Origin: Amoebidium appalachense | Taxonomy: Eukaryota > Protista > Ichthyosporea | NCBI GenBank assembly: GCA_963693365.1 | Contig: CAVNZM010000006.1 | Location: 8,184,855-8,248,854, forward strand | Length of the DNA: 64,000 bases | Reading direction: 5' to 3' | Shown here: positions 42,746-64,000 of the stretch, in pieces | Numbering within the stretch: position 1 is the stretch's first letter | How the letters are laid out: every line of letters starts with the position of its first letter | The notes under the pieces: model-generated | The model's database searches: none | What the model was told of the DNA's origin: nothing | What the model saw: the letters and a program-made list of their open reading frames with translations, nothing else | Made by a program: the position numbers and the translations under genes

Positions 42746-43166
42746 ATTGGGATATTCGGGTTGGTTGTAAGGTTTTCCGGGTCGGGCCGAAGGCCTTAAC
42801 GGGCCGCAGGCCCGTCTATTGGGCCATAGGCCCTAGGCCGCTAGGCCTGGGGCCCGGGGCGCCGGGGACCGGGGGCCCGGCCCGGCCCGCGAGCCACCCC
42901 GGCCCGGCCCGGCCCCCCCGGCCCGGCCCCGAATCTGCTAACCCCGGGGCCGGGCCGGGGGGCCGAGATTCTGCTAACCCCGGGGCCGGGCCGGGGGGGC
43001 CGGGCCGGGCCGGGGTGGCTCGCGGGCCGGGCCGGGCCCCCGGTCCCCGGCGCCCCGGGCCCCAGGCCTAGCGGTCTAGGGCCTATGGCCCAATAGACGG
43101 GCCTGCGGCCCGTTAAGGCCTTCGGCCCGACCCGGAAAACCTTACAACCAACCCGAATATCCCAAT
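42746..43166. repeat. 421-bp GC-rich palindrome (186-bp arms, 49-bp centre)
   Basis: 42746-42931 is the reverse complement of 42981-43166 with one mismatch that I could find (ccctaggccg vs ccctagaccg). Confidence 0.97.
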
Positions 43167-43420
43167 ATTACTTCATTCTGATTGGTTGTCACACCACGGG
43201 GTTTCCCGATTGTTCTTCGAATGACATTTGCTATCACTATCAGACTGTTCTCCAATATCAGAACAGAAAACGGTCTCTACCCAGATGGCCAGATGGCCAG
43301 GTCAAATTCAGTGTGTGGAAAAAGGTGGATAAAACGGGATAAAACGGTGAGCAAAATGATCTGGCCATCTGGCCATGTGGCCATGGAATCTCTATATCTA
43401 AAAATAGCTGCCACTGCGCC

Positions 43421-43600
43421 GGGGCGTGGTTCCGGGAGGCAGGGGAGCAGGGGAGCAGGGGGGGGCACGTGAGCACTCACTGGGGCCTGGTTCCGGGAGG
43501 CAGGGGAGCAGGGGAGGCAGGGGGGGGGGGGCACGTGAGCACTCACTGGGGCCTGGTTCCGGGAGGCAGGGGAGCAGGGGAGGCAGGGGAGCAGGGGAGA
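43421..43600. repeat. G-rich tandem repeat, about 3 copies of 60-66 bp
   Basis: ggggcctggttccgggaggcaggggagcagggg...gcacgtgagcactcact repeated. Confidence 0.9.
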
Positions 43601-43676
43601 CTGGCATGCCACTCACGGGGAGGATAGTGTATGTTGGCACCATGCGGCTGTGTGGGTGATAAAGGCAGAAGCCACA

Positions 43677-44651
43677 ACACGTGTGGTGTCTAAACAGCCT
43701 ATAGGCATGCTCCGTGTGCAGGCACCAATTTCTACCCTCTTCTGGTTGGTGCCAAGAGGCAGCGCCCTACACGTGTGGTGTCTAAACAGCCTATAGGCAT
43801 GCTCCGTGTGCAGGCACCAATTTCTACCCTCTTCTGGTTGGTGCCAAGAGGCAGCGCCCTACACGTGTGGTGTCTAAACAGCCTATAGGCATGCTCCGTG
43901 TGCAGGCACCAATTTCTACCCTCTTCTGGTTGGTGCCAAGAGGCAGCGCCCTACACGTGTGGTGTCTAAACAGCCTATAGGCATGCTCCGTGTGCAGGCA
44001 CCAATTTCTACCCTCTTCTGGTTGGTGCCAAGAGGCAGCGCCCTACACGTGTGGTGTCTAAACAGCCTATAGGCATGCTCCGTGTGCAGGCACCAATTTC
44101 TACCCTCCTCTGGTTGGTGCCAAGAGGCAGCGCCCTACACGTGTGGTGTCTAAACAGCCTATAGGCATGCTCCGTGTGCAGGCACCAATTTCTACCCTCT
44201 TCTGGTTGGTGCCAAGAGGCAGCGCCCTACACGTGTGGTGTCTAAACAGCCTATAGGCATGCTCCGTGTGCAGGCACCAATTTCTACCCTCTTCTGGTTG
44301 GTGCCAAGAGGCAGCGCCCTACACGTGTGGTGTCTAAACAGCCTATAGGCATGCTCCGTGTGCAGGCACCAATTTCTACCCTCTTCTGGTTGGTGCCAAG
44401 AGGCAGCGCCCTACACGTGTGGTGTCTAAACAGCCTATAGGCATGCTCCGTGTGCAGGCACCAATTTCTACCCTCTTCTGGTTGGTGCCAAGAGGCAGCG
44501 CCCTACACGTGTGGTGTCTAAACAGCCTATAGGCATGCTCCGTGTGCAGGCCCAAATTTCTACCCTCTTCTGGTTGGTGCCAAGAGGCAGCGCCCTACAC
44601 GTGTGGTGTCTAAACAGCCTATAGGCATGCTCCGTGTGCAGGCACCAATTT
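43677..44651. repeat. 92-bp tandem array, about 10.6 near-identical copies
   Basis: gtgtggtgtctaaac starts at 43681, 43773, 43865, 43957, 44049, 44141 ... 44601 (exact 92-bp period); only two single-base variants seen. Confidence 0.97.
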
Positions 44652-44837
44652 GTTGTGCCTTCCTTTTTTGGTTAGATCTATACCCGGCCAATGGTTAGCA
44701 GCCACGGGTTTGTTTTCATCAAGCTTAGACGTGATACTTTGCCAACCATCAAGGCCGTTTGAGTGACAATGACCGTTGATTGGAGAGATCTATCCCATTG
44801 AGCCTTGGCACCATTGCTGTAAGCTGCTTTGTACCGT

Positions 44838-44850
44838 GGCATATAAAAGC
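44838..44850 (+). promoter_or_regulatory. TATA-box motif GGCATATAAAAGC upstream of the 44945 ORF
   Basis: An identical 13-mer lies on the minus strand at 48758-48770 upstream of the 48674 ORF; CCAAT/ATTGG words lie further upstream of both. Confidence 0.7.
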
Positions 44851-44944
44851 AGCACACACGGTCACATTCACTCATTTCAACACTGACACTCAATAGTAAA
44901 AGGCGACACACAACAAACTTGTTTTTCAAACACTCACACGAAAC

Positions 44945-46144
44945 ATGGATTCTTTGAAAGAGGAGCTTCAACAGCTGCAGAAGCGATTTGATTTTCTGTA
45001 CACGGACCATTCGTCTCGCTTAACGGCCCTGCACACCGACCTCATCAGCCTCCGCAGTCAAGTGACCAATGAGAATGCTGCGCGTACGCCCCGACCCCCC
45101 CAACCCCAGCCCTCTGATGTAGAGGCACGACTGAGGGCAGCCGAAGAGCAGATCAAGACCCTGCAGGCCGAGCTTGCCAGCCTGCAACGGGCTGCAGCAC
45201 CCCGTCGGGATGGCCAGGTGGCCTATGAAAACTACATTTTCAGTGGCCCTCGCAAGACTACCATTGCCGCCAACACCACCACTGTGACTGCTGACCCCAC
45301 CCCTGCCGCCAACACCACCACTGTGACTGCCCCCACCCCTGCCGCAAAGACCACCCCTGTGACTGCCCCCACCCCTGTCGCAAAGACCGCCCCTGTGACT
45401 GCCCCCACCCCTGCCGCAAAGACCACCCCTGTGACTGCCCCCACCCCTGTCGCAAAGACCGCCCCTGTGACTGCCCCCACCCCTGCCGCCAAGACCACTC
45501 CTGCCAAGACCACCCCTACCACCAAGACCACTCCTGCCAAGACCACCCCTACCACCAAGACCACTCCTGCCAAGACCACCCCTACCACCAAGACCACTCC
45601 TGCCAAGACCACCCCTGCCGCTAAGCCCAGGCCCAAGCACACCAAAACACCTGAGACTTCGTTGCATGACCATACGATGGACCTCGATGCACAGCTAACT
45701 AGTGTGAGGGGGGAGCTCCAGAATGCTCGAGAGCGTGTCAAAGAGGCAAAGGCGGCTGAAGATGAAATGGCGGAGGGCCTGGCCATTGCTGCTGTGTGTG
45801 CAGCCCAAAACACCATAAAAAGCATCCGAAGGAAGATTCTGCGACGGGAGAAGAACTTGAAGGCATACACAGGTGGTAATGAGTCTGTCTCTTCACCTGC
45901 CTCACCCACCAAACGCGTCCATGATCAATGCGATTGGGACTCAGATGAAGCATTCAACCCCAAGCGGCTCAAACGACGGGCAAATCAGGTACTCGATGAT
46001 ATGACAGATGACGAATCTGCGTCTGATCGTGAGTCGGTCGTGTATGACCGCAAACCTGAACCCAAACATAAACAAACTGAAGAAATTCCCCTCATTGATC
46101 TTGACCAGGAAGAGTTTGACCAGTATGAGCATGAGATGTACTGA
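44945..46144 (+). CDS. Hypothetical protein: N-terminal coiled coil, P/T/A/K-rich tandem repeats, second coiled coil, basic and acidic tail
   Basis: 399-aa ATG ORF with upstream TATA; in-frame repeats PVTAPTPAAKTT and TTKTTPAKTTP. Confidence 0.8.
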   Translation: MDSLKEELQQLQKRFDFLYTDHSSRLTALHTDLISLRSQVTNENAARTPRPPQPQPSDVEARLRAAEEQIKTLQAELASLQRAAAPRRDGQVAYENYIFSGPRKTTIAANTTTVTADPTPAANTTTVTAPTPAAKTTPVTAPTPVAKTAPVTAPTPAAKTTPVTAPTPVAKTAPVTAPTPAAKTTPAKTTPTTKTTPAKTTPTTKTTPAKTTPTTKTTPAKTTPAAKPRPKHTKTPETSLHDHTMDLDAQLTSVRGELQNARERVKEAKAAEDEMAEGLAIAAVCAAQNTIKSIRRKILRREKNLKAYTGGNESVSSPASPTKRVHDQCDWDSDEAFNPKRLKRRANQVLDDMTDDESASDRESVVYDRKPEPKHKQTEEIPLIDLDQEEFDQYEHEMY

Positions 46145-46544: not shown

Positions 46545-47826
46545 ACCCACCTAAGTACACTCTGCACCACCCTAAGTACACTGTGGTGCACAGCCCCACC
46601 CTAAGTACACTCTGCACCACCCTAAGTACACTGTGGTGCACAGCCCCACCCTAAGTACACGTCTGCACCACCCTAACCCTAAGTACACTGTGGTGCACAG
46701 CCCCACCCTAAGTACACTCTGCACCACCCTAAGTACACTCTGCACCACCCTAAGTACACTCTGCACCACCCTAAGTACACTCTGCACCACCCTAAGTACA
46801 CTCTGCACCACCCTAAGTACACGTCTGCACCACCCTAAGTACACGTCTGCACCACCCTAAGTACACGTCTGCACCACCCTAAGTACACGTCTGCACCACC
46901 CTAAGTACACGTCTGCACCACCCTAAGTACACGTCTGCACCACCCTAAGTACACTCTGCACCACCCTAAGTACACGTCTGCACCACCCTAAGTACACTCT
47001 GCACCACCCTAAGTACACGTCTGCACCACCCTAAGTACACTCTGCACCACCCTAAGTACACGTCTGCACCACCCTAAGTACACTCTGCACCACCCTAAGT
47101 ACACGTCTGCACCGCCCTAAGTACACTCTGCACAGCCCCACCCTAAGTACACTCTGCACCACCCTAGGTACACTCTGCACCGCCCTAAGTACACTCTGCA
47201 CAGCCCCACCCTAAGTACACGTCTGCACCACCCTAAGTACACGTCTGCACCACCCTAAGTAGACCTCTGCACCACCCTAAGTAGACCTCTGCACCACCCT
47301 AAGTACACGTCTGCACCACCCTAGGTACACTCTGCACCGCCCTAAGTACACTCTGCACAGCCCCACCCTAAGTACACGTCTGCACCACCCTAAGTACACG
47401 TCTGCACCACCCTAAGTAGACCTCTGCACCACCCTAAGTAGACCTCTGCACCACCCTAAGTACACGTCTGCACCACCCTAAGTACACGTCTGCACCACCC
47501 TAAGTACACGTCTGCACCACCCTAAGTACACCTCTGCACCACCCTAAGTACACGTCTGCACCACCCTAAGTAGACCTCTGCACCACCCTAAGTAGACCTC
47601 TGCACCACCCTAAGTACACGTCTGCACCACCCTAAGTAGACCTCTGCACCACCCTAAGTACACGTCTGCACCACCCTAAGTACACCTCTGCACAGCCCTA
47701 AGTACACCTCTGCACCACCCTAAGTACACCTCTGCACAGCCCTAAGTACACTCTGCACAGCCCCACCCTAAGTACACTCTGCACCACCCTAAGTACACTC
47801 TGCACAGCCCCACCCTAAGTACACTC
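46545..47826. repeat. 21-22-bp minisatellite (roughly 55-60 units) containing CCCTAA
   Basis: Units ccctaagtacactctgcacca, ccctaagtacacgtctgcacca, ccctaagtagacctctgcacca and longer ...cacagcccca variants. Confidence 0.95.
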
Positions 47827-47903
47827 AATGTTAAGTACATCTGCACACAAGCACTAGAATAGCCTGAGGCTACTCTCTAATAGCGGCCCCTTTTTTCACC
47901 GTG

Positions 47904-48674
47904 TCAAGGCCAGTTGATATATTCGTCTGAAGACTCGGAAGACGCCCCAGAGCTGCTGGCTTCACTGGCTCGTGCCCTTTTCTGCTGTCCCCGTGTCAAG
48001 GTCTTGGACTCGGAAGACGAGTACTCCTCAGAAGACGAGTACTCCTCAGGTTCTGACTGCTGTCCCCGTAGCAAGGTCTTGGACAAGGTCTTGAACCAAG
48101 GAGGCACTTCCTCCTGTACCTTCGACCCAGAGCTTTTGACTTCCTCTCGTGTCCTCTTCTGCTGTCTTGGTGGTTTCTCCCGTGTCTTGGACCCCTGTGT
48201 GAAGGTCTTCCAGTTGAACCAAGGAGGCACTGGAGAATGGTGCTCCTCCTCCGACCCAGAGCTTCTGACTTCCTCTCGTGTCCTCTTCTGCTGTCTTCGT
48301 GGTTTCTCCCGTGTCTTGGACCCCTGTGTGATGTGCAAACGTGAGCGCTGCAGGGGCAGGGGGGCCAAGTCCACGGGATAGGAGCTGCCATGCTCGCCAG
48401 CACGAAGTGCAGGTGCCGCTGCCAGGACAGGGGGTGCCACGGTCAGCGCTGGGGGTGCCACGGTTGCTGCTGGGGGTGCCACGGTTGCTGCTGGGGGTGC
48501 CACGGTTGCTGCTGTAGTGGTGCGCTTGCTTAAAGCCATGCGGGCGTGCCTAGCAAGGGCGCACGCGAAACGGGTCTGGGTGTCCCGCAGGACCTTTGCA
48601 TCCTGCTCCAAAGTCTTGAGTCTTGTCTCTATTTTTTCAGCGCGCCTTTCTAGATCTTTGATGTTAGAACTCAT
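47904..48674 (-). CDS. Hypothetical protein: N-terminal coiled coil, AATVAPP repeats, duplicated basic/Ser-rich block
   Basis: First ATG (MSSNIKDLE) about 90 bp downstream of the TATA at 48758-48770; TQGSKTREKP..QQKRTREEV occurs twice. Confidence 0.75.
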   Translation of the reverse strand: MSSNIKDLERRAEKIETRLKTLEQDAKVLRDTQTRFACALARHARMALSKRTTTAATVAPPAATVAPPAATVAPPALTVAPPVLAAAPALRAGEHGSSYPVDLAPLPLQRSRLHITQGSKTREKPRRQQKRTREEVRSSGSEEEHHSPVPPWFNWKTFTQGSKTREKPPRQQKRTREEVKSSGSKVQEEVPPWFKTLSKTLLRGQQSEPEEYSSSEEYSSSESKTLTRGQQKRARASEASSSGASSESSDEYINWP

Positions 48675-49619: not shown

Positions 49620-49982
49620 ATGGATGAAAGTTTAACAGTCACACAGCGCCAAGATGCACACACCGAGCAGCTGCAAGAGACCAACAAGATGCTGAAGGAG
49701 GCCAACGAGGGGCTGCACGGGCTGATCCAGCAGCTGAGGGAGTTGAACAACGACATGGACAAGGACAACGACGCGCTGCGCACAATGAACAAGAACCAGC
49801 GGGAGGTGATCAAGGGCCTGCAAGAGGAGCGCAACAAGGTGTGCGAAGAGAACAAGAATTTGGTGGTGGAGAACCAAGAGCTGCAGCTGGAAAACGACAA
49901 GCTGAAGAAGCAAAAGGACTTTCTACGGGCCTGTCTCATACGGCTGGGCCAGTCCGCTAAGACTCCGGATGAAACGGATTGA
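49620..49982 (+). CDS. Small coiled-coil protein
   Basis: 120-aa ATG ORF with strong heptad periodicity and GC3-rich codons. Confidence 0.8.
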   Translation: MDESLTVTQRQDAHTEQLQETNKMLKEANEGLHGLIQQLRELNNDMDKDNDALRTMNKNQREVIKGLQEERNKVCEENKNLVVENQELQLENDKLKKQKDFLRACLIRLGQSAKTPDETD

Positions 49983-50040
49983 TACAGTCATGAGGGATAA
50001 CACTTGCGAGTGATTTCATTCTGTTACTTAGTATGTATTA

Positions 50041-50328
50041 ACGTCTAAGCTTGATGAAAACAAACCCGTGGCTGCTAACCATTGGCCGGGTATAGATCTA
50101 ACCAAAAAAGGAAGGCACAACAAATTAGTGCCCTGCACACAGAGCATGCCTATAGGCTGTTTAGACACCACACGTGTAGGGCACTGCCTCTTGGCACCAA
50201 CCAGAAGAGGGTAGAAATCAGTGCCCTGCACACGGAGCATGCCTATAGGCTGTTTAGACACCACACGTGTAGGGCACTGCCCCTTGGCACCAACCAGAAG
50301 AGGGTAGAAATCAGTGCCCTGCACACGG
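50041..50328 (-). repeat. Inverted copy of the array end: about 81 bp of unique flank plus about 2.2 units of 93 bp
   Basis: 50041-50121 is the reverse complement of 44652-44732; gtgccctgcac recurs at 50128, 50221 and 50314. Confidence 0.95.
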
Positions 50329-50399
50329 GGCAACTGGAAATACATGTTTTAGGGCTCGTAGCCCACCCAGACAAAATTATTTTCTAGTATAAGATAATA

Positions 50400-51785
50400 A
50401 TGATAAACATTGACGAGGCCGCACGTACTTCGTTTCTCAATGTTACGGATGGATTACCGCGCTTTGCCCCATCAAGCTCCATTGGTTCCTGGTGTGATAA
50501 AGATGCCATTATTGCTTTTTTGAGGACAAAGGTAGCTCGCGTTCTAAATAGCAATGTGTATGTGGTAAAAATCAACAAGGGGAGACGTACCACTTTTGAT
50601 TTCCAATCCAGGGAGGCAGTCAACGGGACTCTGTCCGCCATGAGATTCACCTATCCGAATGGGAAAAAAGACGCTGTTTACTTGGGGAAGGACTATTTAT
50701 GCGAACCCACAATAACATGGTTCAACGACGCTGTTTTTGACCCGGCTGATCTCAAGTGCGAGAAGGACGAGAACTACGCCTGCTTCAATACATATGGCGG
50801 CATGGCGTTTTCACCTATTGACGGTTTCCGAGTGGACTCACATAAAGTGGGGCCCTTTCTCTGGCACCTACACAACATTATGGCCAACGGTGACCCCATC
50901 ATGGGCGGGTTTCTTCTTAATTGGATTGCACATATCATCCAGCATCCAGGACAAAAGCCTGATAGTTGTTGTCTTTTCAAAAGTGTCCAAGGGACGGGAA
51001 AAAACATGTTTTGGAACATATTCAGCAAGTTATTGGGTCCCGCCCTGGTTGTAACCGTGAACAGCAAACACCGATTGGTTGGGAATTTCAATGCACACCT
51101 CGCGGATAAGCTGCTTGTGTTGGTCGATGAAGTGACCTTTGGGGGGGAACACACAGTCAACAACCAGCTCAAAAATATGATAACAGACACGACAATGGTT
51201 ATCGAGCGAAAAGGCATCGACCAAATGGTCCGACGGTCCTGTGAGCGCTACGTGTTTATGTCAAACGAGGACTGGCCACTGCGTGTTGAAGCCAGCGACC
51301 GCCGCTCTGCCTGCTTTGAGGTCTCACCTGCAAAAGTCAACGACACGGCATACTTCAACAACCTCTGGACACACTATGAGGATCAAGATGCTCTACACCA
51401 CCTCTTCCAATTTCTGCACCAACACCGTCCTAATGGGAATCCAATCTTGCTTTATCTCCGCCCACCGAACTCCAAGTTGAAGGAGCGTCTGAAATCGTTT
51501 TCCCGATCTGACTCTCTGTCCTTTTTGAAGGATGTTGTCATGGGGGAGGACAGCTGCGAAAGAATGGCCCTCACCGACGGAAAGTTTGTGACAGCAACCG
51601 AGATCCACCTTCATCTTCAAGAGTGGATGCGCTTAAACGGCAAGAACCCGCAGACAGCCAGCCTGCGACAAGTGGGCGAATGCCTCTCGAAGCTTTTCGG
51701 GGACAAAGTTAATGGAATGAGTTTGTTTGTCCAGGGGAGGTGTAAGGGGTACCACCTAAATTTTGAGGCCATTTTGATGGGGTGA
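50400..51785 (+). CDS. D5/NrS-1-type superfamily 3 helicase (no primase domain recognised)
   Basis: FNTYGG, LNWIAHIIQHPG.K, Walker A SVQGTGKN, FNAHL, Walker B LVLVDE, IERKG, motif C FMSN, DRR, and a C-terminal winged-helix-like region. Confidence 0.92.
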   Translation: MINIDEAARTSFLNVTDGLPRFAPSSSIGSWCDKDAIIAFLRTKVARVLNSNVYVVKINKGRRTTFDFQSREAVNGTLSAMRFTYPNGKKDAVYLGKDYLCEPTITWFNDAVFDPADLKCEKDENYACFNTYGGMAFSPIDGFRVDSHKVGPFLWHLHNIMANGDPIMGGFLLNWIAHIIQHPGQKPDSCCLFKSVQGTGKNMFWNIFSKLLGPALVVTVNSKHRLVGNFNAHLADKLLVLVDEVTFGGEHTVNNQLKNMITDTTMVIERKGIDQMVRRSCERYVFMSNEDWPLRVEASDRRSACFEVSPAKVNDTAYFNNLWTHYEDQDALHHLFQFLHQHRPNGNPILLYLRPPNSKLKERLKSFSRSDSLSFLKDVVMGEDSCERMALTDGKFVTATEIHLHLQEWMRLNGKNPQTASLRQVGECLSKLFGDKVNGMSLFVQGRCKGYHLNFEAILMG

Positions 51786-52100
51786 GTAGGATGAGTAGCT
51801 TGAGTACCTACTCATCTGGTCTCCCCCCGGGTGTTCCAATTTCCTTTTGGATTGAGATTTAGGTATACCCGTAGCCCACAGTAGATGAGTACGTACTCAT
51901 CCTACTCATCCTACTCACTATATGACAATTGCATATTTTTATACCTAAAAAGGAAACCTTTACCATATTTGGGTGAGTAACATCTAGTGGGGGAAACTTG
52001 TCTGTGTTACTCAGAATGAGTACCCTGAGTAAGATATTGTTACTCATGAAACAAATAAAAAACCATTAATTTTATGCTCAGAGTAACTTGAATTACTCAG
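51782..52100. promoter_or_regulatory. Iteron-like TGAGTA/TACTCA cluster, candidate replication origin
   Basis: 14 copies in both orientations within 320 bp directly after the helicase stop; perfect 17-bp inverted repeat 51782-51798 / 51902-51918. Confidence 0.55.
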
Positions 52101-52142
52101 GGCAAACGAAAACGTTGGCTTTTTTATTCCTTAACCTCAACG

Positions 52143-52697: not shown

Positions 52698-52942
52698 GTA
52701 GATGATCTCGAGGAGGTCACGGAATGAAGCCACTGGGGTGAGCTTCCCCACTCCATTGATGCGAAGTTGGCCTCGCGGGCGAGAAGGGTGGGGGGGATCA
52801 TTTCTCTGAAAAATAAACAAATTTGTGCGTGCATACACAGGCATGCGCTCGGAGGACACCTTGGGGGTGGCCCTGCTTATATACGCGTGCTGCACCATCC
52901 GGGGCGCAGTCGCACACACACACGCACTGCGTGATACCTGCA

Positions 52943-54489: not shown

Positions 54490-54966
54490 ATGTCCGGCAC
54501 ACCATCTGCAAAGGCCGGCCCTGACCCAGCCGGGCAGCCTGCCAGTCCACGGCCCCCAGGGTCATTTGCCACGTGGCCTCCCGAATGGCAGCAGTACCTG
54601 TACGAGGAGGCAAAGCGCGACCGCTACCGTGCGCGCGCCAGCGAGCGGGAGATGCAGCTCAAGTACAAGTTGCTGCACAAGAAGTACAAGCGCCTCAAGA
54701 CCAGCGTGAGCCTGTACCGTATGACATGGAGGAGCCTGAAGAACCTCAGCGACCCCGAGACCTCCGCCGAGGAGTCCCCCACCGAGGAGCGCCCCATTCG
54801 CATCTTGAGCTCCGAGGAGGAGCGCCTCCACAAGAAGCCCCCCGAGAAGAAGCGCGCGCGGTCGCCCGAGGACACTTCGGCGCCCACCGAGAAGAAGCGC
54901 GCGCGGTCGCCCGAGGACACTTCGGTGCCCACCGAGAAGCGCAGCCGTGCTGGACACGAGGAGTAA
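54490..54966 (+). CDS. Hypothetical basic protein with coiled coil and EKKRARSPEDTS repeats (NLS-like)
   Basis: 158-aa ATG ORF, GGTATAAAA at 54423, a GATTGG cluster at 54240-54385, and AATAAA overlapping the stop. Confidence 0.8.
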   Translation: MSGTPSAKAGPDPAGQPASPRPPGSFATWPPEWQQYLYEEAKRDRYRARASEREMQLKYKLLHKKYKRLKTSVSLYRMTWRSLKNLSDPETSAEESPTEERPIRILSSEEERLHKKPPEKKRARSPEDTSAPTEKKRARSPEDTSVPTEKRSRAGHEE

Positions 54967-55376
54967 ATAAAAATTGCCACTTCCTCTTCCACACCTGTGT
55001 TGTGGACCGTAGCGCTTGCATGCATGGTGCTGCTCGCACTGCTTGCCGCGTGCTGGCGCTCAGGGGGGGGGGGGGGGGTCTTGTTGTTTGTGTTAATGCA
55101 CCCACAGCGTGCCCTTTGTGACACTTGCAGTGGGTTGTTGTTGTTGCCTTTTACAACCACCGCTCTGGACACAAGATCGAACAGCTATCAAATTGACCAT
55201 ATATATGACAAAGAAAAACAAGGTTGCCAAAGATCATTGTAGCAGTGCGTCCTCCGTCTTGGCGCGCCCTACGTCCCAGCGGTTTTTAGGTTCCATTAGC
55301 ACTGCGATGCATAATCTCTGTGTGTGCTCCCCGAGTTGCTGGGGAGGGGGCGCTCCAAACTATCTCTTTGGAAGGT

Positions 55377-55631
55377 ATGACTTCTCCGAACATTGCAAAC
55401 CTGAGATTTGACAACCCGAGTAACTCGTGGGTGCGCAGGGATGACATTGCCGCCGACCCGCACGAGTACCACCTGACCATCGACAACAACACGCGCTTCA
55501 TGCTCTACATGGGCACTTCATTGGACGACCATGATGCACAGCTCAAGAGCGCTTCGATGTGGAGGGGCATAGCGCTTGCATGCATGGTGCTGCTCGTGCT
55601 GCTCGCTGGCCTGCTGGTGTACAGGTGGTAG
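55377..55631 (+). CDS. Small protein with C-terminal transmembrane anchor (84 aa)
   Basis: ATG ORF ending IALACMVLLVLLAGLLVYRW; the TM-coding stretch is partly duplicated at about 55010-55060. Confidence 0.55.
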   Translation: MTSPNIANLRFDNPSNSWVRRDDIAADPHEYHLTIDNNTRFMLYMGTSLDDHDAQLKSASMWRGIALACMVLLVLLAGLLVYRW

Positions 55632-55849
55632 GGGGGGGGGGGGGGGGGGGGGAGCTCAGGTGGGCTGGTTGTTGCAGCGGTTGAAGCTGTTGAACCGTTG
55701 AGGCTGGGCGGGTCAACCCATACACACACAGACCTATCCCACTTCTCTATTGAATACCCCACCTTCAACAGCTTCAACAGCTTCAATTCTTCAACAAGGG
55801 TATAAAAGGAGCAGGCATGCTTTATTTTCTTCAGTCTATTGTAAGCATC

Positions 55850-57301
55850 ATGAGTGCGCCACCATCTTATGATGCATTTGAGGATCTTACGGTTGACCAC
55901 AGCATGTTGTTTGATCCCCACACATGTGTCCAACGCTCACATTGGACTATGGATGAGGTGTTTGCCTTTTTGAGCCCAAACATCGCATATGTCAGTAGGG
56001 AAGGTGCCTATCTCGTCAAGATTTATGACCAGGACACGAACCTGTACAAACACCATCGCAAAACAAAGGCTGCACTCCAAGAGTTTTTGGGTGCCTTTCT
56101 ATTCCAGCTCGTCCCTGGTGCAAATGGCAAACAGGACACGTACAACGGCGCAAACGTGTTGAAAACACCATGCTTTCCATACTACACCTGTTTTGTTTTC
56201 GACCCGTCATCTCCAGACCCACGCACCGGAAACACCAAGCCAGCCTACCTTGTCCAACGTTGCCGGGCATACAACATGTTCAAGGGGTTGGCCGTTCCCC
56301 ATCAACCCGAGAACATTTCTTGGCAGTCGGGTTCTGTTTCCTTGTTCGAACGTCATGCCTTTGAGGTTCTTTGTAACAACGACCGGGAGAGCTTTCACTA
56401 TCTGATGCAATGGGTCGCACACATCTTCCAGTATCCGGAAGTCAAGTCCGGGACAGCAATTCTCATGAGGTCGATTCAGGGAATAGGGAAAAACATCTGG
56501 TGGGAGATCATCGCCAACATCATTGGCAGCTGTTATTGCGGTTATATCACACACAGAGAGCATTTGGAGGGCAAGTTCAATGCACATCTGGAGAACAAGC
56601 TACTGGTTGTGTGCGACGAAATGGGTCTAGGCAGTAACAGGGAAATTGCGAATCTGATGAAGGCTCGCATCACCCAACAGGTAAACATGATTGAACGGAA
56701 GGGGCATGATGCCGTGTGTGTGAAGAGTTTTGAACGCTATGTCTGGCTTTCAAACGAGAAATGGCCCGTTCGTGTGGAGGAATCAGATCGTCGTTGGGTA
56801 TGTTTGCAGGGGACTCCAGTGGTCTATCCAAGAGCCTACTACCAGAACTTTACACGCTTCTACGAAGACCCGGCAAACCTACAGGCTGTGTGCGATTACT
56901 TCATGAAGATGCCGAATGTTCCCCGTGTTCTTCCGCTTCCACCCAAGACCGAGCTCTGGTGCGAACTGCGTGAAATGACACAGCCAGATGAACTCCTGTT
57001 TCTCAAAGACATGGCGACAGGCGCAGAGGGCATGTCTATCGAGCAACTTCCCAACGGGGCCCGTGTTACAGCCACCACAATGCTGCATCTGTACAAGGAG
57101 TGGCTTTCACTCAACGGCAAGACCAAGAGCATCCCGTACGCCAGTGTGAAGAGCATGGGCTCCATGCTGGGCAAGATACTTGGACCCAACAAAGGGGTGC
57201 GGAACAACCACCTGACTGTTGCACCTGGGATGCCTGCGCTGTCCTCGACTGGAACGTCGTATGCTTTTGTGTTCGACCATGAGAAGATCAAACAGGCTTA
57301 G
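55850..57301 (+). CDS. Second D5/NrS-1-type SF3 helicase (divergent paralogue)
   Basis: YNMFKG, MQWVAHIFQYP..K, Walker A SIQGIGKN, FNAHL, Walker B LVVCDE, IERKG, WLSN, DRR; GGGTATAAAAGG at 55798. Confidence 0.92.
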   Translation: MSAPPSYDAFEDLTVDHSMLFDPHTCVQRSHWTMDEVFAFLSPNIAYVSREGAYLVKIYDQDTNLYKHHRKTKAALQEFLGAFLFQLVPGANGKQDTYNGANVLKTPCFPYYTCFVFDPSSPDPRTGNTKPAYLVQRCRAYNMFKGLAVPHQPENISWQSGSVSLFERHAFEVLCNNDRESFHYLMQWVAHIFQYPEVKSGTAILMRSIQGIGKNIWWEIIANIIGSCYCGYITHREHLEGKFNAHLENKLLVVCDEMGLGSNREIANLMKARITQQVNMIERKGHDAVCVKSFERYVWLSNEKWPVRVEESDRRWVCLQGTPVVYPRAYYQNFTRFYEDPANLQAVCDYFMKMPNVPRVLPLPPKTELWCELREMTQPDELLFLKDMATGAEGMSIEQLPNGARVTATTMLHLYKEWLSLNGKTKSIPYASVKSMGSMLGKILGPNKGVRNNHLTVAPGMPALSSTGTSYAFVFDHEKIKQA

Positions 57302-57476
57302 ACGATCCTCAACGCTGCGCCCGGGCCTGGGTGGCTGGGAGGGGCAGGCGAGGCACGCACGGCCCCAGGAGGCGGATGTGGCACGTGCGCTGGTGAGACA
57401 CACGAGCCACCCCCAGCCACACATGCCCCTAATTGATATACAGGGCATGGTTCGTTTTTTTCTAGCGCCAACTACA

Positions 57477-58169
57477 ATGGCTAGTCCACGTGACGAAGCG
57501 TGGGTGAGGGAGCGACTTATGCGACTGGAGGGTGGGAAGAGCGAGGTGTATACTCCCGCCGGTAGGATCGACCTGCTGACGGACACGGATGTCATTGAAG
57601 TGAAGAAGGTTCAATATTGGAAATCGGCGATGGGGCAGGTACTTGCATACAAAGACCACTACCCCACCCATCGTGCGCGAGTCCATCTATATGGCTATGC
57701 CTCCGCTGACACGTACAAGGTAGCTGTGGAGACCATGATGCGTCATAACATCACCGTAACGGCAGAACATGATACACTGCAGCATATATGGGGTCCACAC
57801 CCCAAATCAGAAACTACAAAGCCCAAGAATGCCCAGAGGAAGCAAGTAGAACGGCAATTTTTAAGAGATTTGCTCTCCCATACCAACGGATGTGAGGACA
57901 TGACTTTTATAAAGGATAGCTGCTTGGTGAGATCATCGGGGCTGTACCAGCTATACCTTTCATGGCATAAACTGAATCTCTCTTCCACAGCGGCTCCAAG
58001 TTTAAAAATCTTCGGCATGACCCTCAGGAAGATTTTGGGAAAACCCAAAGCTGCCAAAGTGAAAAGAGTTACGCGCTGGCCAGACCACCCTCGCGTGTCC
58101 GAAACAAACAAGGTTGTCTATTGCTACAGGATCGATGGTCAGGTCATCAACAGCCCGGAGCAGCAGTAG
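57477..58169 (+). CDS. PD-(D/E)XK-like nuclease fused to a helicase-type C-terminal winged-helix-like domain
   Basis: EVYTPAGRIDLLTDTDVIEVK...WKSAMGQVLAY motif; the C-terminal FLRDLL...LYLSW.KLN...SLKIFGMTLRKILG aligns by eye with both helicase tails. Confidence 0.8.
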   Translation: MASPRDEAWVRERLMRLEGGKSEVYTPAGRIDLLTDTDVIEVKKVQYWKSAMGQVLAYKDHYPTHRARVHLYGYASADTYKVAVETMMRHNITVTAEHDTLQHIWGPHPKSETTKPKNAQRKQVERQFLRDLLSHTNGCEDMTFIKDSCLVRSSGLYQLYLSWHKLNLSSTAAPSLKIFGMTLRKILGKPKAAKVKRVTRWPDHPRVSETNKVVYCYRIDGQVINSPEQQ

Positions 58170-58205
58170 CCGTTGGAAATTATTTTCTCCCCCCTCAATA
58201 ACACC

Positions 58206-58467
58206 ATGTATCTGTGTACGTGCAAGACCCCCCAAGGCATCATGGTCCGCCCGTACAAGGTGTATCGGTGCACAGTCGACGGTTGCGGCTACTTCCACCA
58301 CCCGCAACAGCAACTTTGCGGCGCACAGCGACAGGCATGCGGGGATTCTGCGGCACGTGTGCGCGCATGCGGGGTGCGGGCGGCAGTTTCGGTATGCCTT
58401 GAGCCTCAAGCGGCACATGCAGCAGCACACCAAAGAACCGGGGAGCCCGAATCGGACCCGAAACTAG
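58206..58467 (+). pseudogene. Frameshifted two-finger C2H2 gene
   Basis: YRCTVDGCGY in one frame continues as NFAAHSDRH...CAHAGCGRQFRYALSLKRHMQQH in another, with the shift near 58295. Confidence 0.65.
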
Positions 58468-58623
58468 CGCGGGTGGCTGGGAGGGGCACGCGAGGCACAG
58501 GAGGCACGCGTGGCACGTGCGCCACAGGAGCCCCTCCCGGCCACCCCCAGCCCCCCAGGCCCCCAGGCCCCAGCCCGGATGGGTGACCGAGGACGACAGA
58601 TATGGACCCGACTCGGGGTGGGT

Positions 58624-59499
58624 TTATTGACGCGCCGCGGCGGCCCAGGCAGCAAACGCCGTGCGGCCATCCACAAGCGCCTGCGCGACCTTCCCGGGGT
58701 CGACGTCCATGGGCGACGCAAACAGCCTCCGCTCCGGAGCGACCACCACGAGGCGGTCTCCGAGGCGGGTGCGGAGGTTGGCGAACTCGGTGGCCGCTAG
58801 CTCGGTGCCCGAGTCACGCTGCAGAGCATAGCAGAGCTCCATGCCCGTTTTTGGCACGGATTCTGCGGGGCAGTGCGCCAGCGAGTCGCACAGCACCGTG
58901 ACGTAGATGCCGTCGAACCCATCTGCGGCATCCTCGAGTGCCTTGGTGAGGGGCACCAGCTCAGAGACCCCGCCGTCCAGAAACACGGTGCCGTCGTACT
59001 CGACGGGGGGGACCGCGAGTGGAAGGGCCGAAGACGCACGCATGCCGACCTGGTACTCGGGCCCTGTGAACCACCGCTCCTTCTTGTTGAGGAAGTCCCA
59101 GGCGACGCAGTGGCAGCGCGTGTAGATGTCCGCGTCGATGCCCTCCAGAAGCGCCGCCGCACGCTCCTGCAGGGTGAAGCGGCTGTACGCCGCCCCGTAC
59201 AGCATTGACCCCACAACAATCCTCCAGCTTTTCGGAAGCAGCGCCATTGCGCCACCCCACGGTTCCACAATGTCCTCCACGCACTTCAGCTTCCCCAGCT
59301 CGCGCGCCAGGTCGTCCAGGCGGTCGGCAACCACGAACGGCGCCACCAGCGCGCCGACGGACGTGCCGTACACCCTGTCGACCTGGTACAGCCCCGACGC
59401 GAGCATCCCCTGCATGAACCCGACTTGGAAGCAGCCCTTGACGCCGCCCCCGGGCAGCAGGATCCGCACACGTGTCCTGGCTTGGGAGGGTGTGTCCAT
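58624..59499 (-). CDS. Patatin-like phospholipase
   Basis: GGGVKG oxyanion motif, GTSVG nucleophile elbow, ASSALP, and DGG catalytic motif. Confidence 0.93.
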   Translation of the reverse strand: MDTPSQARTRVRILLPGGGVKGCFQVGFMQGMLASGLYQVDRVYGTSVGALVAPFVVADRLDDLARELGKLKCVEDIVEPWGGAMALLPKSWRIVVGSMLYGAAYSRFTLQERAAALLEGIDADIYTRCHCVAWDFLNKKERWFTGPEYQVGMRASSALPLAVPPVEYDGTVFLDGGVSELVPLTKALEDAADGFDGIYVTVLCDSLAHCPAESVPKTGMELCYALQRDSGTELAATEFANLRTRLGDRLVVVAPERRLFASPMDVDPGKVAQALVDGRTAFAAWAAAARQ

Positions 59500-59531
59500 G
59501 TTGATGTAGGGCGCGATAAGAGTTGACGGCT

Positions 59532-60398
59532 TCATTCCAGATCCAGGGCGTTGCACACCGAGACCAGGTTTGCCCTTGCGCAGTCCAGCACGAAGGCCGC
59601 CAGCTCGGAGTAGTCGTGGGGGGGCGGCTGGCTCTGCGCGGCCAGCAGCAGCGAGTGGTAGCGCTCGCGGGAGCTGCGGTCTGTGTACAACGAGAGGGGA
59701 ACGGCAATATAGGGCGAGAGCAGCACGCTGACCAACAGACGGGCGACGCGCCCGTTGCCGTTGCTGAACGGGTGGATGTAGAGGAACTCCCCGAGGAAAC
59801 GGGCGGTGACCTGTATGGCACCGAGAACGTCATTGCAGCCTTGGAGTTCGGTGCGTGTCCTTTCGAACAGACGCTTGAGAGCCTCTTCGATCTTGAACGG
59901 TGCAAGGTACTGATGACTGCAGCCTGCGGGAAGCGCAAAGCGCACCCGATACCGTCCAGCGCTATCGAGCAGCCCGTCCATGACCTTGCGATGGACCTCC
60001 CTAGCGAGCTCCACCGTAAACGTGCCTGGATCAATCCCCTTCCAAACCCACGGTGTGGGGAACAGCTCGCGAACTGCTATAACGACGTTTTTCAGTTTCT
60101 TCGATGAGCGCGTGTGTTCGGACGTTTCATCGGGGCAGGAGATCAGCCTCTCAATATGTTCGACTGGGACCTTTTCGTTTATTTCCAATTCCATCAGGTG
60201 CTTGATGTATAACACTAGGTGGTGCGTTGTGTATCCCTGCATGAACAAAGCGCTGCTCTTATCGTTATCCAAAAACGTGCGCACCAGGTGGAGGCAGCGC
60301 ACAACAGCCCCTTCGCTGAGTTGAGACATCACGGTGTTGAACCGACAGATAAAGTACCACAAACTATCAGAATCGACCTTTACGTCACACGGCAACAA
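59532..60398 (-). CDS. Fic/Doc-domain protein (start uncertain; first in-frame ATG at 60329)
   Basis: HPFSNGNGRVAR Fic motif, upstream EVHRKVM...AGRYR, downstream RERYHSLL. Confidence 0.9.
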   Translation of the reverse strand: MLPCDVKVDSDSLWYFICRFNTVMSQLSEGAVVRCLHLVRTFLDNDKSSALFMQGYTTHHLVLYIKHLMELEINEKVPVEHIERLISCPDETSEHTRSSKKLKNVVIAVRELFPTPWVWKGIDPGTFTVELAREVHRKVMDGLLDSAGRYRVRFALPAGCSHQYLAPFKIEEALKRLFERTRTELQGCNDVLGAIQVTARFLGEFLYIHPFSNGNGRVARLLVSVLLSPYIAVPLSLYTDRSSRERYHSLLLAAQSQPPPHDYSELAAFVLDCARANLVSVCNALDLE

Positions 60399-61408
60399 CC
60401 CGGCCCATATCCACCTGCGCGTTCACCACCCTGTTCTCCTGCCCCCCGCCCCCTACCCAGTCCACCGATTTCTCCACAAACCAGAGAGAACACGGCAGTG
60501 CCCATGAACGTTTGGCCCGTGATTTGCTAGAGAACAGCATCGCCGGTCCCCCCCATGTCTCCCGGAACCCAAGAGAACACCATGGCATCCCCAACCATGT
60601 CTCCCGGATCCTTGGAGAACAGGTGCCGGGGGGTGGACCCTGTTCGCCGATTGCTTTTTCCTAGGAGCGGGGCCTGGGGGGCATGAGGGGCACGCGAGGC
60701 ACGGATGGCACAGTGGTCTCACGGGTCTGTGTGCCACAGGCGCCCCCCCCAGCCCCCCCCCAGGCCCCCGGAACAGGCAACGCGGAACCACAACTTCGTT
60801 CCAAAGCAGCGCCAGGTGTGCCAATAAACGGCCAAAGCAGCGCGCAGTTGGCTACCCCGCTATTCGATCTGATTGGTCGAAAGCGTTCAAGATCCTGACC
60901 AAGGTTTCAGAATCTGTTTGTAATCGTTGATAGGACTATTACTTCGCGATTTCTATTAGAAATGTGACCGAATTGTTTATAAAACTATCTTGAATATGAA
61001 ATTGGGTATAAAACGTTTGATTTTATTCGTATGTTTGGTTCTAAGGGATAGAAGAGAAAAAGGCATCAGCTGTCATTGAAAAATCTTGAAGCACTGGCAT
61101 TGCCTGCTCTTCGCAGGATCTGATTGGATCTTGAATTGGGTGTGATCCAATCCCCAGCAGCCAATCGTGCAGTTTGGTGATCTGGATCTGAAAGCATTCT
61201 CCCAATCAAACGCGTGACTTCATTCGTTAGAAAGGATATCATTTCGTCAGCATCAGTTGGGAATTGGCTTCTAAGGGCACGGCACAGCTGATAGGGTGTC
61301 ACTTTCACACACCTTCTGTAGTGTCAACATCAAAGGCTTTGAAGTCGCTTGTTAGGTCGCCTTTTACTGATTTTTCGCTTTGCACCCCCATTTCTACACA
61401 CACACACC

Positions 61409-62272
61409 ATGGAACAAGTAGGCAAGCGCAGCTACAAATGGCTGACCGATCACCTTTTCACTAAGAACACCAAGGACAAATACATGGTCAAGTGCCGCGC
61501 TTGTGTCGCTGACATGCACAGCGACCAGATCCCCTCGCATGTGAAGGTGTGCAGGGAATTAAACCACTGCCAGGACGCCATCCTTGCCCTCGTCGCCGCA
61601 GAGAACGCCGTCGGGCCCGCGCGCGACAAGGTGCGTCCGTTGGTCACGGAGTTCGGGGGGTGCGCAGTGGCTGCACAGTCCGTCGTGCCGGGTCTGCGCC
61701 AGTACCTGCAGCAGCCTGGGCGCAACGTCGTGGGCGCGGCTAAGGCACGGGCGGTGGCGCAGGCGCTCCACGACATGGCAGAGGCGGCTCGGGCGGTTAA
61801 GGACGGGTATGTGGGTTTTTGGTCGGCTGAGGATGCTGTGGAGCGCAACAAGCAAGCGCTGCGCCATCGGATTGCCGAACGTGTCCACCGCCGCCAGGGC
61901 GGGGAGGGGCCCGGCCAGTTCGCCTACGTTCCCCGCCCCCCCGGTTCTCCCCGTCCAAACCTCGTCCCCTTTGCGCTCACACCCGGGGAGCTTGCAAGTG
62001 GCAACGTGCTCCGGCAGTGCGAGATATTTCTGTTTGATCGAGTGCAGAGGGATCCGAAGTACCCTCCCGGGAAACGTATCGACTCAGACGATGTGTGGGG
62101 GGCGGAGGAGAGAGACTCTGCTCTTGCGGCATCGATCGATGAGTGGGCGGTGGAGGTTCCCGTTTGGTGGGATGAGGGCAACCACTATTTTGTTCAGGAC
62201 ATGGAGATGATTGAGCAGCGCCTGCGGGAGGGGTATGATTGGGTGATGAAGGTTGTTGCGGAGCTTGAGTGA
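61409..62272 (+). CDS. Hypothetical protein with N-terminal CxxC...HxxxC putative zinc-binding motif
   Basis: 287-aa ATG ORF with GC3-rich codons; VKCRAC...PSHVKVC. Confidence 0.7.
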   Translation: MEQVGKRSYKWLTDHLFTKNTKDKYMVKCRACVADMHSDQIPSHVKVCRELNHCQDAILALVAAENAVGPARDKVRPLVTEFGGCAVAAQSVVPGLRQYLQQPGRNVVGAAKARAVAQALHDMAEAARAVKDGYVGFWSAEDAVERNKQALRHRIAERVHRRQGGEGPGQFAYVPRPPGSPRPNLVPFALTPGELASGNVLRQCEIFLFDRVQRDPKYPPGKRIDSDDVWGAEERDSALAASIDEWAVEVPVWWDEGNHYFVQDMEMIEQRLREGYDWVMKVVAELE

Positions 62273-62767
62273 GGGCTGAGGGGGGGGGGGGGGGGGGGTG
62301 GATGGGGTGGTGTTAGCATGAGCTAGATGGGGGTTGGTTTGATGGGATGGTGTTAGCATGTTAGCATCATGAGAGGGCTTGGAAGTTGGTTGATGTGCTT
62401 CCGGGAGATAAGCTTGTTTGTTTATTGGCCGCTGTGCTGGCTGATTATATCTGTGTCGCTTTTTGAATAAAAACCCAAACCTGGTAGTACCAGAAGACCA
62501 AGGAATGGGCTGTGGAGGAAGTAGGGGAAGTGGGGGAAAAATTCCACCACTTCCAATTCCCGGGCCAGGGGCAACGCGAGACCCCGGCCCCCACTGCCAC
62601 CGTGCTCCGCTGCTTCTTGGGGAATAGGGGTATAAAGGCAGGATGGATGGCAAAGGGGGGTCAGAGCAGGTTGGGCCCAAACAATATTTTCTCTCTCTTA
62701 AGTGATGCACTCGTCAAAAAAACAGTCGTTCCTTATGTCACCGTCTCCACCCCCTTACACCACAAGC

Positions 62768-63925
62768 ATGGGCGCCCAGAGAGAAGCTGACCGTGAAGGC
62801 GACACGGCATCCGCCAAACGCGCCCGTCTCGACGTGCAGCGGTTCACATTTGCCAACGGCGAGTTCGCCGGCCGAAGCGTGCGCACATGCCTTACGGACC
62901 CGCCCCTTGCCAGCGCAAGCCACATCATCATGGCTGTCAACACATGCGACCGCAAGACGGCACTCAATGCCTGGGAGTACCAGCAGAAGCAGCCATGGGC
63001 AATTTCGGAATCAACGTCTGAATTTTTCAGACGTTGGAAGTTTGATGGGCGGAACGAATCGGTTGGTCTGACTGCCAAGCAAGTGGTCAAGCTGATAAAC
63101 GCGCTTCCTGGTGCAAAGGCCGCAGCTTTCCGCGAAAAGTGCGCGGACGTGTTCGTGCGCTACCTTGGAGGCGACGACAGTCTCGTGTCCGAGATTGCTC
63201 AGAACCGTGCCGTGGCCGCCGCCGATCCCTCAAGCACCCAGGCCTTTGCTGCTGCATCTGTCCCCACCGCACCGCCTGTCACCTACACTCCTGCCCAGCT
63301 GGAGTACTTTGTTAACTCTGGCACAGTCACACTCGAGGCTGCTGTGGGGCTGTTTGAGCGTGTCACGATTGCGCGAAACACAACGCCTGAAGTCCTAATC
63401 GAGCGCGAGAAGCACACGACCATCCAGCTCGAGACCGAGAAGGCAGTGGTCGAGGAGCGCGAGCGCCGTGAGACGCTGCTGGCACACACCCGTCTCCTCC
63501 ACGAGCAGGCCAAGGAGGCCAACGCGCTGACGAAGCGGCTGGACGAGCGCTACTACCTCACACGCCAGCTCAACGCCCGCCACACGGCCGAGGCGCGCGG
63601 CGGCCCGTGCTTCTATTTCGTCGACGCCCTGGACTCCACCCTGATGTTTGGCTGCACGGGGCAGAGCATTGCGCGCCGCTACCGCCGCGAAAAGATGCGT
63701 CGAATCGTGCTCAACGGGGTGTTGTTTGCGCTGGCCGCGCAGGACAAGGCAATGGCAGCGGCCATGGAGGGTGCGTTCAAGAGTCTGGTGCGCGAGTCTG
63801 CTGCAACAATGCGTCTCAGCAACTGCGAGGGGCTCGCCAACAACTATGACATGTTCAAGCTGGTCATGGAGAAGTGGAACGGATTGGCGGGCGAGGAGGG
63901 TTGGCCAGTGCTGGACTTGGCATAA
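62768..63925 (+). CDS. Viral-type KilA-N/Bro-like DNA-binding protein with coiled coil and possible degenerate GIY-YIG/T5orf172-like C-terminus
   Basis: LINALPGAKAAAFR...VFVRYLGGDDSLVSEI motif of the kind seen in large DNA virus multigene families; C-terminal CFYFV...FGCTG..IARR; GGGTATAAAGG at 62628. Confidence 0.65.
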   Translation: MGAQREADREGDTASAKRARLDVQRFTFANGEFAGRSVRTCLTDPPLASASHIIMAVNTCDRKTALNAWEYQQKQPWAISESTSEFFRRWKFDGRNESVGLTAKQVVKLINALPGAKAAAFREKCADVFVRYLGGDDSLVSEIAQNRAVAAADPSSTQAFAAASVPTAPPVTYTPAQLEYFVNSGTVTLEAAVGLFERVTIARNTTPEVLIEREKHTTIQLETEKAVVEERERRETLLAHTRLLHEQAKEANALTKRLDERYYLTRQLNARHTAEARGGPCFYFVDALDSTLMFGCTGQSIARRYRREKMRRIVLNGVLFALAAQDKAMAAAMEGAFKSLVRESAATMRLSNCEGLANNYDMFKLVMEKWNGLAGEEGWPVLDLA

Positions 63926-64000
63926 GCTGATCGTACGGTTTCGAACCAAGAGGAGGACATGACATAGTGATGGAAATTATGGATGTAGGTAGATGCTGCT

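Follow-up and report, generated by a model that had tools for sequence, protein, structure and literature searches.

Anatomy of the probable left end of a palindrome-ended, helicase-encoding element integrated in the genome of Amoebidium appalachense

The window analysed here is a stretch of 64,000 nucleotides from Amoebidium appalachense (assembly GCA_963693365.1, contig CAVNZM010000006.1, positions 8,184,855 to 8,248,854 of the forward strand), and positions 42746–64000 of it hold a gene block that opens with a 421-bp palindrome. The block comprises 15 genes, each a single open reading frame (ORF), at a coding fraction of 0.55, and is an intron-poor, gene-rich block within an intron-rich host, as are endogenous elements of the Amoebidium type. 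Two of its genes encode helicases of superfamily 3 (SF3) that lack a primase, and short repeats (iterons) lie beside both helicases and close to the palindromic end. An earlier note on this DNA, made from the letters alone, had proposed that a nuclear DNA virus or a plasmid-like element is integrated here and that this is its left end; the same end recurs behind other flanks, with mosaic gene content, and this supports the proposal. We regard the block as a real end of an integrated element with an unusual replication anatomy. More specifically, at a probability of about 0.65, we read it as the left terminus of a linear, virus-type replicon that is integrated in multiple copies and whose helicases would load themselves and work with host enzymes in the nucleus. 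The evidence comprises the palindrome, the recurrence of the end behind other flanks, the mosaic content, the fold and motifs of the helicases, the iterons near the helicases and the end, and an enrichment of TATA boxes upstream of the genes. The features concerned are as follows, with the strand given where a feature has one.

42746–43166: terminal palindrome, 421 bp, which sets the left end of the element at 42746 or 42747
43284–43385: subterminal iteron dyad, two plus three opposed 8-bp repeats of the GATGGCCA type, spacer 62% AT
43421–43599: G-rich repeats, unit 61–66 bp, 2.6 copies
43677–44651: 92-bp tandem array, 10.6 copies, 99% matches
46567–47805: minisatellite, 21–22-bp unit, about 50 copies, one CCCTAA per unit
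50041–50332, minus strand: inverted copy of 44444–44732, with 2.3 units of the 92-bp repeat and about 80 bp of flank, 95% over 292 bp
50400–51785, plus strand: helicase 1, 461 aa, a primase-less SF3 helicase of NrS-1/D5 type with a C-terminal winged-helix-like domain, missing from some related copies
51783–52099: origin-like cluster, 14 TGAGTA/TACTCA hexamers with an AT-rich centre
55680–55795: third iteron dyad, GTTGAA type, 8–9-bp step, directly before the TATA box of helicase 2
55850–57301, plus strand: helicase 2, 483 aa, primase-less, 34% identical to helicase 1
57477–58169, plus strand: ORF of 230 aa, with a PD-(D/E)xK-like N-terminal domain (assigned from motifs) and the C-terminal domain of the helicases

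The two arms of the palindrome, 42746–42931 and 42981–43166, are 186 nt long each and differ by a single mismatch; the folding energy is −313.9 kcal/mol (z −36.6), which none of 100 shuffled versions equalled. The terminal palindrome is as the earlier note described it; the hairpin that the note placed at the end is inferred from the palindrome. The 49-nt centre contains a duplication of about 33 nt, and within this loop (42932–42980) GCTAACCC is present twice, a motif that recurs in a shorter-armed variant end in sequencing run X12. A match at 43163–43171 to NANTATTAC, the nick motif of circular Rep-encoding single-stranded (CRESS) DNA viruses, was dismissed: base 43170 differs from nearly all contig depth, so that the match is private to the copy in the window. 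Right of the palindrome, the 92-bp array and its inverted partner are present as claimed. The order of features is mirrored, with a dyad and then 92-bp repeats at 43284–44732 and inverted 92-bp repeats and then a dyad at 50041–52099, and in some copies a joint (50250>51775) brings the latter two directly together. The first 9 kb of the element look like a sub-element with mirrored ends. The CCCTAA minisatellite stands as a repeat and falls as a telomeric array, since each unit of 21–22 bp carries one CCCTAA; the motif occurs 54 times with just one tandem pair, and integration of a telomere array was dismissed on that ground. Simple repeats occupy 0–38 bases per 2 kb right of 44 kb versus up to 955 on the left, where some blocks, for example 14–20 kb, also have 0.

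Both helicases match DUF5906 (E-values 2e-22 and 3e-19) and have Walker A, Walker B, motif C and the arginine finger intact. The model of helicase 1 (predicted local distance difference test, pLDDT, 89.5) finds its best fold match in the C-terminal region 305–718 of NrS-1, followed by the Rep of Staphylococcus aureus pathogenicity islands (SaPIs), poxvirus D5 and the PrimPol of African swine fever virus. This match is confined to the primase-free part of NrS-1, and a primase is accordingly absent from helicase 1; nor did Pfam, PHROGs or the fold match place a primase domain or gene beside either helicase, the ‘primase’ matches in PHROGs spanning only the helicase part. A search of 1.84 billion representatives returned 12 proteins at E-values of 3e-160 to 4e-51, 11 of them 410–503 aa long, with primase-fused proteins behind them at 1e-44 or weaker. 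Ten of these top relatives are Logan/ENA records on contigs of up to 22 kb. In a quick tree of 72 chosen rows, made without bootstrap and without all of the 150 hits, the helicases and these relatives form one unnamed clade of 17 rows with an SH-like approximate likelihood-ratio (SH-aLRT) value of 98. The sole clade member with a taxon name, P0058, belongs to a 183-kb contig in an assembly of Daphnia sinensis; its origin may be a protist dwelling on the cuticle, or it may be a true insertion. A. appalachense itself was isolated from freshwater arthropod cuticle, according to the genome paper (PMC11244446). A hidden N-terminal domain in a 602-aa relative (P0206) was considered and dismissed, there being no match to an HUH profile and the homology starting at the methionine of helicase 2. 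Scans for related loci confirmed none, either for the helicase alignment in metagenome and genome contigs or for helicase 2 in contigs of metagenomes and viruses.

In these 21 kb, every one of the 14 TGAGTA/TACTCA hexamers falls within 317 bp, the first of them in the stop codon of helicase 1, with eight copies on one side and six on the other of a centre (51918–51973) that is 71% AT versus 45% overall. In SaPI origins, as described in the accessible text of PMC9371898, 6–12 penta- or hexanucleotide iterons lie just downstream of rep, opposed about an AT-rich centre, and are bound by the C-terminal winged helix of Rep. Helicase 1 and its cluster have this same predicted arrangement by sequence and model: an SF3 helicase with a C-terminal domain, and opposed hexamers directly downstream about an AT-rich centre, as in the SaPI and NrS-1 systems (PMC9371898; PDB 6k9c, 6k9e and 6lrb). 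They differ from those systems in the eukaryotic host, the TATA promoters, the presence of two helicases and the palindromic end; the cognate primase that is upstream or fused in a SaPI, and the integrase of that bacterial island, were not found in the window. The element has four dyad clusters where 60 shuffles gave 0.5 on average and never more than two, which upholds the iteron dyads of the earlier note. Three of the four are clean, and the fourth falls within the repetitive ORF at 47904–48674. The subterminal dyad lies 120 bp inside the palindrome.

Twenty of 23 listed sequencing runs contain 50000–59900 wholly or partly, and four of the 20 (X1, X7, X12 and X17) were compared with the window. 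Three studies are named for the runs, of which one may have produced the window itself. Contigs of three runs carry the end behind other flanks: 1238 bp of other sequence precede 42747–42854 in X7 (record 15), 131 letters of other sequence lead into the same segment in X12 (record 3), and X1 (record 1) agrees at 100% over 43117–43166 and then continues in different letters. A flank contig in X12 terminates exactly at 42746, as expected of a fork between filled and empty sites. Two joints omit helicase 1: 50250>51775, which every one of the four runs shows and which is strong in X1, X7 and X17, and 50038>51960, in X12 and X17; the 158-aa gene is omitted by a joint at 54407>54934, again in all four runs, and the nuclease gene by joints in X1, X7 and X12. 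Further mosaic joints lie at 57605>61079 and 57369>58150. Each joint side has just 20–41 letters at 85% likeness, and each is weak alone; taken together, the joints are those of a mosaic family. The depth of a single contig relative to the flank is 3.5–3.7 in X7 and 5.5 in X12 over helicase 1, and 23.5 in X12 over 43226–43317, which hints at several to tens of element copies, with the proviso that contig depth is no copy number and that the flank may itself be repeated. An end that stands behind other flanks, with mosaic gene content, argues against single-copy host genes, and a multi-copy mosaic family with a defined end is likely. Run X17 was considered as another strain, and dismissed on variants common to X1 and X12; its contig depths are not proportional to those of the other runs (about 20 over helicase 1 and the Fic gene, 800–2000 over three small ORFs and 0 on the flank) and are no measure of expression. 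No RNA data set was listed as containing the segment, which bears neither way on expression.

The remaining features of the element are these.

44945–46144, plus strand: ORF of 399 aa without a family match, with a coiled coil, Thr/Pro/Lys repeats and a TATA box some 100 nt upstream
47904–48674, minus strand: repetitive ORF of 256 aa without a family match, preceded by TATA and CCAAT
49620–49982, plus strand: ORF of 120 aa, coiled coil
52143–52697, plus strand: C2H2 zinc-finger protein of 184 aa (Pfam)
52943–53461, minus strand: ORF of 172 aa without a family or Atlas match, with a TATA box some 60 nt upstream
54490–54966, plus strand: ORF of 158 aa, TATA/CCAAT-rich promoter, missing from some related copies
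55377–55631, plus strand: ORF of 84 aa, hydrophobic C-terminus
57322–57429: GC-rich imperfect palindrome, with related copies at 58464–58563 and 60668–60769
58206–58467, plus strand: small zinc-finger gene, frameshifted in the window's copy
58624–59535, minus strand: patatin-like phospholipase, catalytic motifs intact
59532–60329, minus strand: Fic-domain protein, canonical HPFxxGNGRxxR motif
61409–62272, plus strand: ORF of 287 aa without a family, Cys/His cluster at the N-terminus, Atlas matches all below 0.9
62705–63925, plus strand: ORF of 406 aa, N-terminal domain common to ENA proteins, two of them on contigs of about 0.5 Mb

Library scans covered 17 ORFs with Pfam and 12 with PHROGs. 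Pfam assigned DUF5906 (ORFs at 50400 and 55850), C2H2 (52143), patatin (58624) and Fic (59532), so that the cargo proposed earlier is confirmed for C2H2, patatin and Fic. The label ‘Bro-like’ or ‘KilA/Bro’ of the 406-aa ORF has no Pfam or PHROG match and stands for a resemblance at most. Among the scanned ORFs there was no capsid, polymerase, primase or integrase family, in agreement with the earlier note on capsid, polymerase and integrase, and none of the giant-virus core genes for major capsid protein (MCP), A32 ATPase, VLTF3, PolB or a D5 helicase fused to an archaeo-eukaryotic primase (AEP-D5) in these 21 kb of an element that extends past the window. Scans against Rfam and for tRNAs gave no match, the ESM Atlas none at 0.9 or above for the 172-aa and 287-aa ORFs, and no relative was confirmed among loci sought with the patatin or with the N-terminal domain of the 406-aa ORF, single or aligned. 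Of the 15 genes, six have TATAAA 30–200 nt upstream; among 20,000 random positions, coding ones included, the share is 5.4%. The TATA boxes behind the claim of host promoters are present, and transcription of the genes by host RNA polymerase II is what we infer from them. The three GC-rich intergenic imperfect palindromes are 72–76% alike, and one mosaic joint begins within the first; they are possible cassette boundaries, terminators or origins. The Fic stop and the first patatin ATG share four bases (59532–59535), as in coupled prokaryotic or viral genes, and a second methionine lies 12 codons downstream of that ATG. Two stretches are probable gene remnants: 52452–52943 on the minus strand, with a weak match to the N-terminal domain of the 406-aa ORF (E 4e-4), and 53541–53873 on the plus strand, a Cys/His stretch that presumably resembles a PHD finger and has no Pfam match.

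The flank left of the element is of a different make-up. A fragment of a Plavaka transposase (PF18759, E 1.2e-7) lies at 40655–41257, 1.5 kb from the element, and 34166–42010, directly to the left, holds degraded and in part duplicated remains of Plavaka-type transposases, in which the introns are very long and CA/G-rich. The left flank also holds Copia and LINE-type (long interspersed nuclear element) reverse transcriptases and CA/G-rich introns. Further out are a multi-exon host gene (2449–11648) for a receptor that combines a solute-binding domain with several membrane-spanning segments, presumably like a class C G-protein-coupled receptor, and an intronless gene for a 548-aa multi-pass membrane protein that matches no Pfam family (13567–15213). 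In the ORFs of Copia-type long terminal repeat retrotransposons (24975–26420 and 30845–32400) CGC/GCG occurs at 0.05 of expectation, other CG contexts at 0.78–1.07, and the other host ORFs do not show this avoidance. Such depletion is consistent with a host that methylates CGC/GCG, and A. appalachense does so preferentially, according to the genome paper (PMC11244446).

The 230-aa ORF had been described as a nuclease that shares the C-terminal domain of the helicases. The shared domain is upheld (hhalign 98.2%, E 3e-14); the nuclease label is based on invariant E/D/ExK/Q motifs, and no library family matched. The nuclease-like domain is about 50% identical to unnamed proteins or proteins fused to a helix-turn-helix domain, and an alignment scan gave six loci at 36–44%, the one examined (L008) being a bacterial phage-like contig. 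Within the helicase clade, three members (P0002, P0044 and P0191; ENA/Logan) carry an extra N-terminal domain ahead of the D5/NrS-1-type helicase. In a fold search of 48,161 chains, its model, of mean pLDDT 68, gave as first 11 rows T-antigen, papillomavirus E1 and the Rep domains of gemini-, circo-, nano- and smacoviruses (Z 8.6–10.5), with an ACT domain next at Z 8.3; the named rows in BFVD are CRESS Reps. Matches came from the fold search only, a PDB sequence search with the alignment giving none, and a scan with the alignment for related loci confirmed no relative. By these models the helicase clade apparently includes fusions to an HUH or origin-binding domain (OBD) fold, parallel to the initiators of polyoma- and papillomaviruses, and the fused proteins may be incapable of nicking.

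We propose the following working model. By analogy with SaPI Rep, the C-terminal winged-helix domain would bind the iterons and the hexamer would melt the AT-rich centre, so that each helicase is predicted to load itself on its adjacent cognate origin. Synthesis would then fall to host primase and polymerase, as for the T-antigen of simian virus 40 (SV40) and papillomavirus E1, a suggestion made because no primase or polymerase is in view. The free form would be linear with hairpin ends; once nicked, a hairpin could be filled in to yield the open palindrome, which could then be joined to the chromosome. The nuclease-like protein with the helicases' DNA-binding domain is perhaps the best candidate for the nick, and gene cassettes would be gained and lost between copies.

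Several observations weigh against this account. The X7 and X12 contigs with other flanks are about 90% alike and probably represent a single locus, and, given the symmetry of the arms, an ‘other flank’ could be the inner sequence of a divergent member. No contig among those listed for 42620–43420 spans the window's own junction, and the best-matching runs may be the window's own source. The short joint sides, the contig depths and the quick helicase tree, with the limits given for each above, belong here as well. No free or hairpin molecule was observed in contigs, which are incapable of showing one, and the window yielded neither an integrase nor a resolvase. The dyad of helicase 2 lies upstream of its gene, about a spacer that is only 52% AT. 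The fused relatives have no conserved tyrosine past the fourth strand and a tryptophan at the position expected for the catalytic tyrosine, the model of their extra domain has the pLDDT and the ACT neighbour already noted, and no HUH-like domain was found in the window with a three-sequence profile (best E 0.2).

The class of the element lies mainly between two readings that are nearly tied, the first slightly ahead. The first, which we hold at somewhat below even odds, is that an endogenous giant virus of the Amoebidium type (related to Mamonoviridae) has its variable terminal region here, with capsid and core genes further right and the helicase–iteron units as passengers or accessory origins. 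The published load of this host is large: about 130 insertions, 90 chromosomal and 42 unplaced, intron-poor and up to 200 kb (PMC11244446). The window's element resembles them as an intron-poor, gene-rich insertion amid transposons with many polymorphic copies. Poxviruses and asfarviruses typically have hairpin ends with tandem arrays next to them and termini free of core genes, and both the cargo and the arrays behind a hairpin fit a giant-virus terminus. Relatives of the 406-aa ORF sit on contigs of 494 and 514 kb, the fold matches of helicase 1 in BFVD include, at rank 3, a primase-less 474-aa helicase of Iridovirus LCIVAC01, and nucleus-dependent nucleocytoviricots exist, as the accessible part of 10.64898/2026.08.29.747986 reports. 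Against this reading, MCP, VLTF3, A32, AEP-bearing D5 and JmjC were not found in the window, genes fill a mere 0.55 of the sequence and have long promoters rich in CCAAT, and the helicase alignment found in IMG/VR viral contigs only seven loci at 24–31%, mostly phage-like, none of which shares another gene with the element. The published insertions are described as stochastic, and the main text of that paper, figures aside, reports no terminal palindromes or defined ends and contains neither ‘palindrom’ nor ‘terminal inverted’ (PMC11244446).

The second reading, scarcely less probable, takes the element for a plasmid of the nucleus or a satellite dependent on a helper, standing alone and without a capsid. 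It would correspond in eukaryotes to the SaPI and P4 replicons, insert through its palindromic ends and bear its cargo in cassettes. It accommodates the SaPI-like coupling of helicase and origin, the two divergent helicases with different iterons, the distinct helicase clade with its OBD-fused members, the cassette-like joints, the lack of structural genes in 21 kb, the low coding fraction and the want of close IMG/VR relatives. Less easily reconciled with it are that the window ends before the right part of the element and six ORFs have no family, and that no integrase or resolvase was identified in the window. Cargo of these types also occurs in giant viruses. A fuller version of the satellite idea, which we consider doubtful, would place these elements in a class not yet described, of nuclear plasmids or satellites that inhabit animal-related protists, lack a capsid and have hairpin ends, with SaPI-like helicases each at its own iteron origin, integration by palindromic ends, shuffled chromatin- and lipid-active cassettes and, in some relatives, a T-antigen-like fusion of OBD and helicase.

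A Polinton-like virus (PLV), virophage or adintovirus with palindromic termini is improbable. The endogenous virophages and PLVs of Halocafeteria seosinensis likewise join terminal palindromes in integrated protist DNA to replication genes other than protein-primed PolB (pPolB), some having two, and hairpin priming has been proposed for them in the accessible text (10.64898/2026.07.28.741278). Their palindromes measure 52 nt against 421 nt here, an eightfold difference, and they pack capsid modules and an RVE integrase into about 20 kb; gene density in the element is low. The Qinghai Lake virophage helicase at rank 5 of the same BFVD search, and the adintoviruses of about 30 kb known in Amoebidium (PMC11244446), speak for this alternative; the first 21 kb, in which six ORFs have no family, contain no MCP, minor capsid protein (mCP), ATPase, pPolB, RVE or tyrosine recombinase (YR), and too little room is left for them in a genome of 20–30 kb.

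Just as improbable is that the true element starts further left, at the Plavaka transposase, and that the palindrome is internal to a Plavaka giant repeat. Such repeats are intron-poor clusters of up to 50 kb, usually flanked by Plavaka (PMC11244446), and the PF18759 fragment does lie beside the block. The end recurs behind other flanks, however, a flank contig stops at 42746, and neither tyrosine recombinases nor tandem clusters of repetitive genes were found in the window. Least probable of all is an assembly artefact (a fold-back read or a chimera with a co-cultured organism) or a set of ordinary host genes: the duplication in the palindrome centre, which the contig comparison passed over as a repeat, and the want of a listed contig across the junction would suit it, but arm sequence occurs with variants in short contigs of X1, X7 and X12, the palindrome spans only 421 bp and the helicase relatives are of viral or plasmid type.

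Other known systems share single traits with the element. The terminal palindrome of adeno-associated virus (AAV) is GC-rich. AAV and other parvoviruses, SV40 T-antigen and papillomavirus E1 offer a terminal palindrome, an SF3 helicase reliant on host polymerases and, in relatives of the element's helicases, the fused HUH/OBD fold; the element's own helicases are instead of D5/NrS-1 type, with no HUH domain found in the window, many cargo genes and more than 21 kb. Genomes of Parvoviridae measure about 4–6 kb, and the element at least 21 kb. Mriyaviricetes combine an HUH endonuclease with a morphogenic module like that of nucleocytoplasmic large DNA viruses (10.64898/2026.06.19.733378, accessible text), neither of which was found in the 21-kb part of the window. 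No description of the overall layout was found in the literature searched, most subscription papers and preprint supplements lying outside it; palindrome-ended endogenous DNA elements of protists are already known, and it is this combination that was not met there.

What the end means for Amoebidium differs between the two leading readings. If it belongs to a giant virus, these endogenous viruses would end precisely, at palindrome-derived termini, and possess accessory iteron origins. That would call into question the published view of stochastic integration, and the end would provide a primer-sized handle with which to map every insertion. If the element stands alone, it would represent a new class of eukaryotic replicon, in which an origin of phage-satellite type works with the nuclear machinery of the host.

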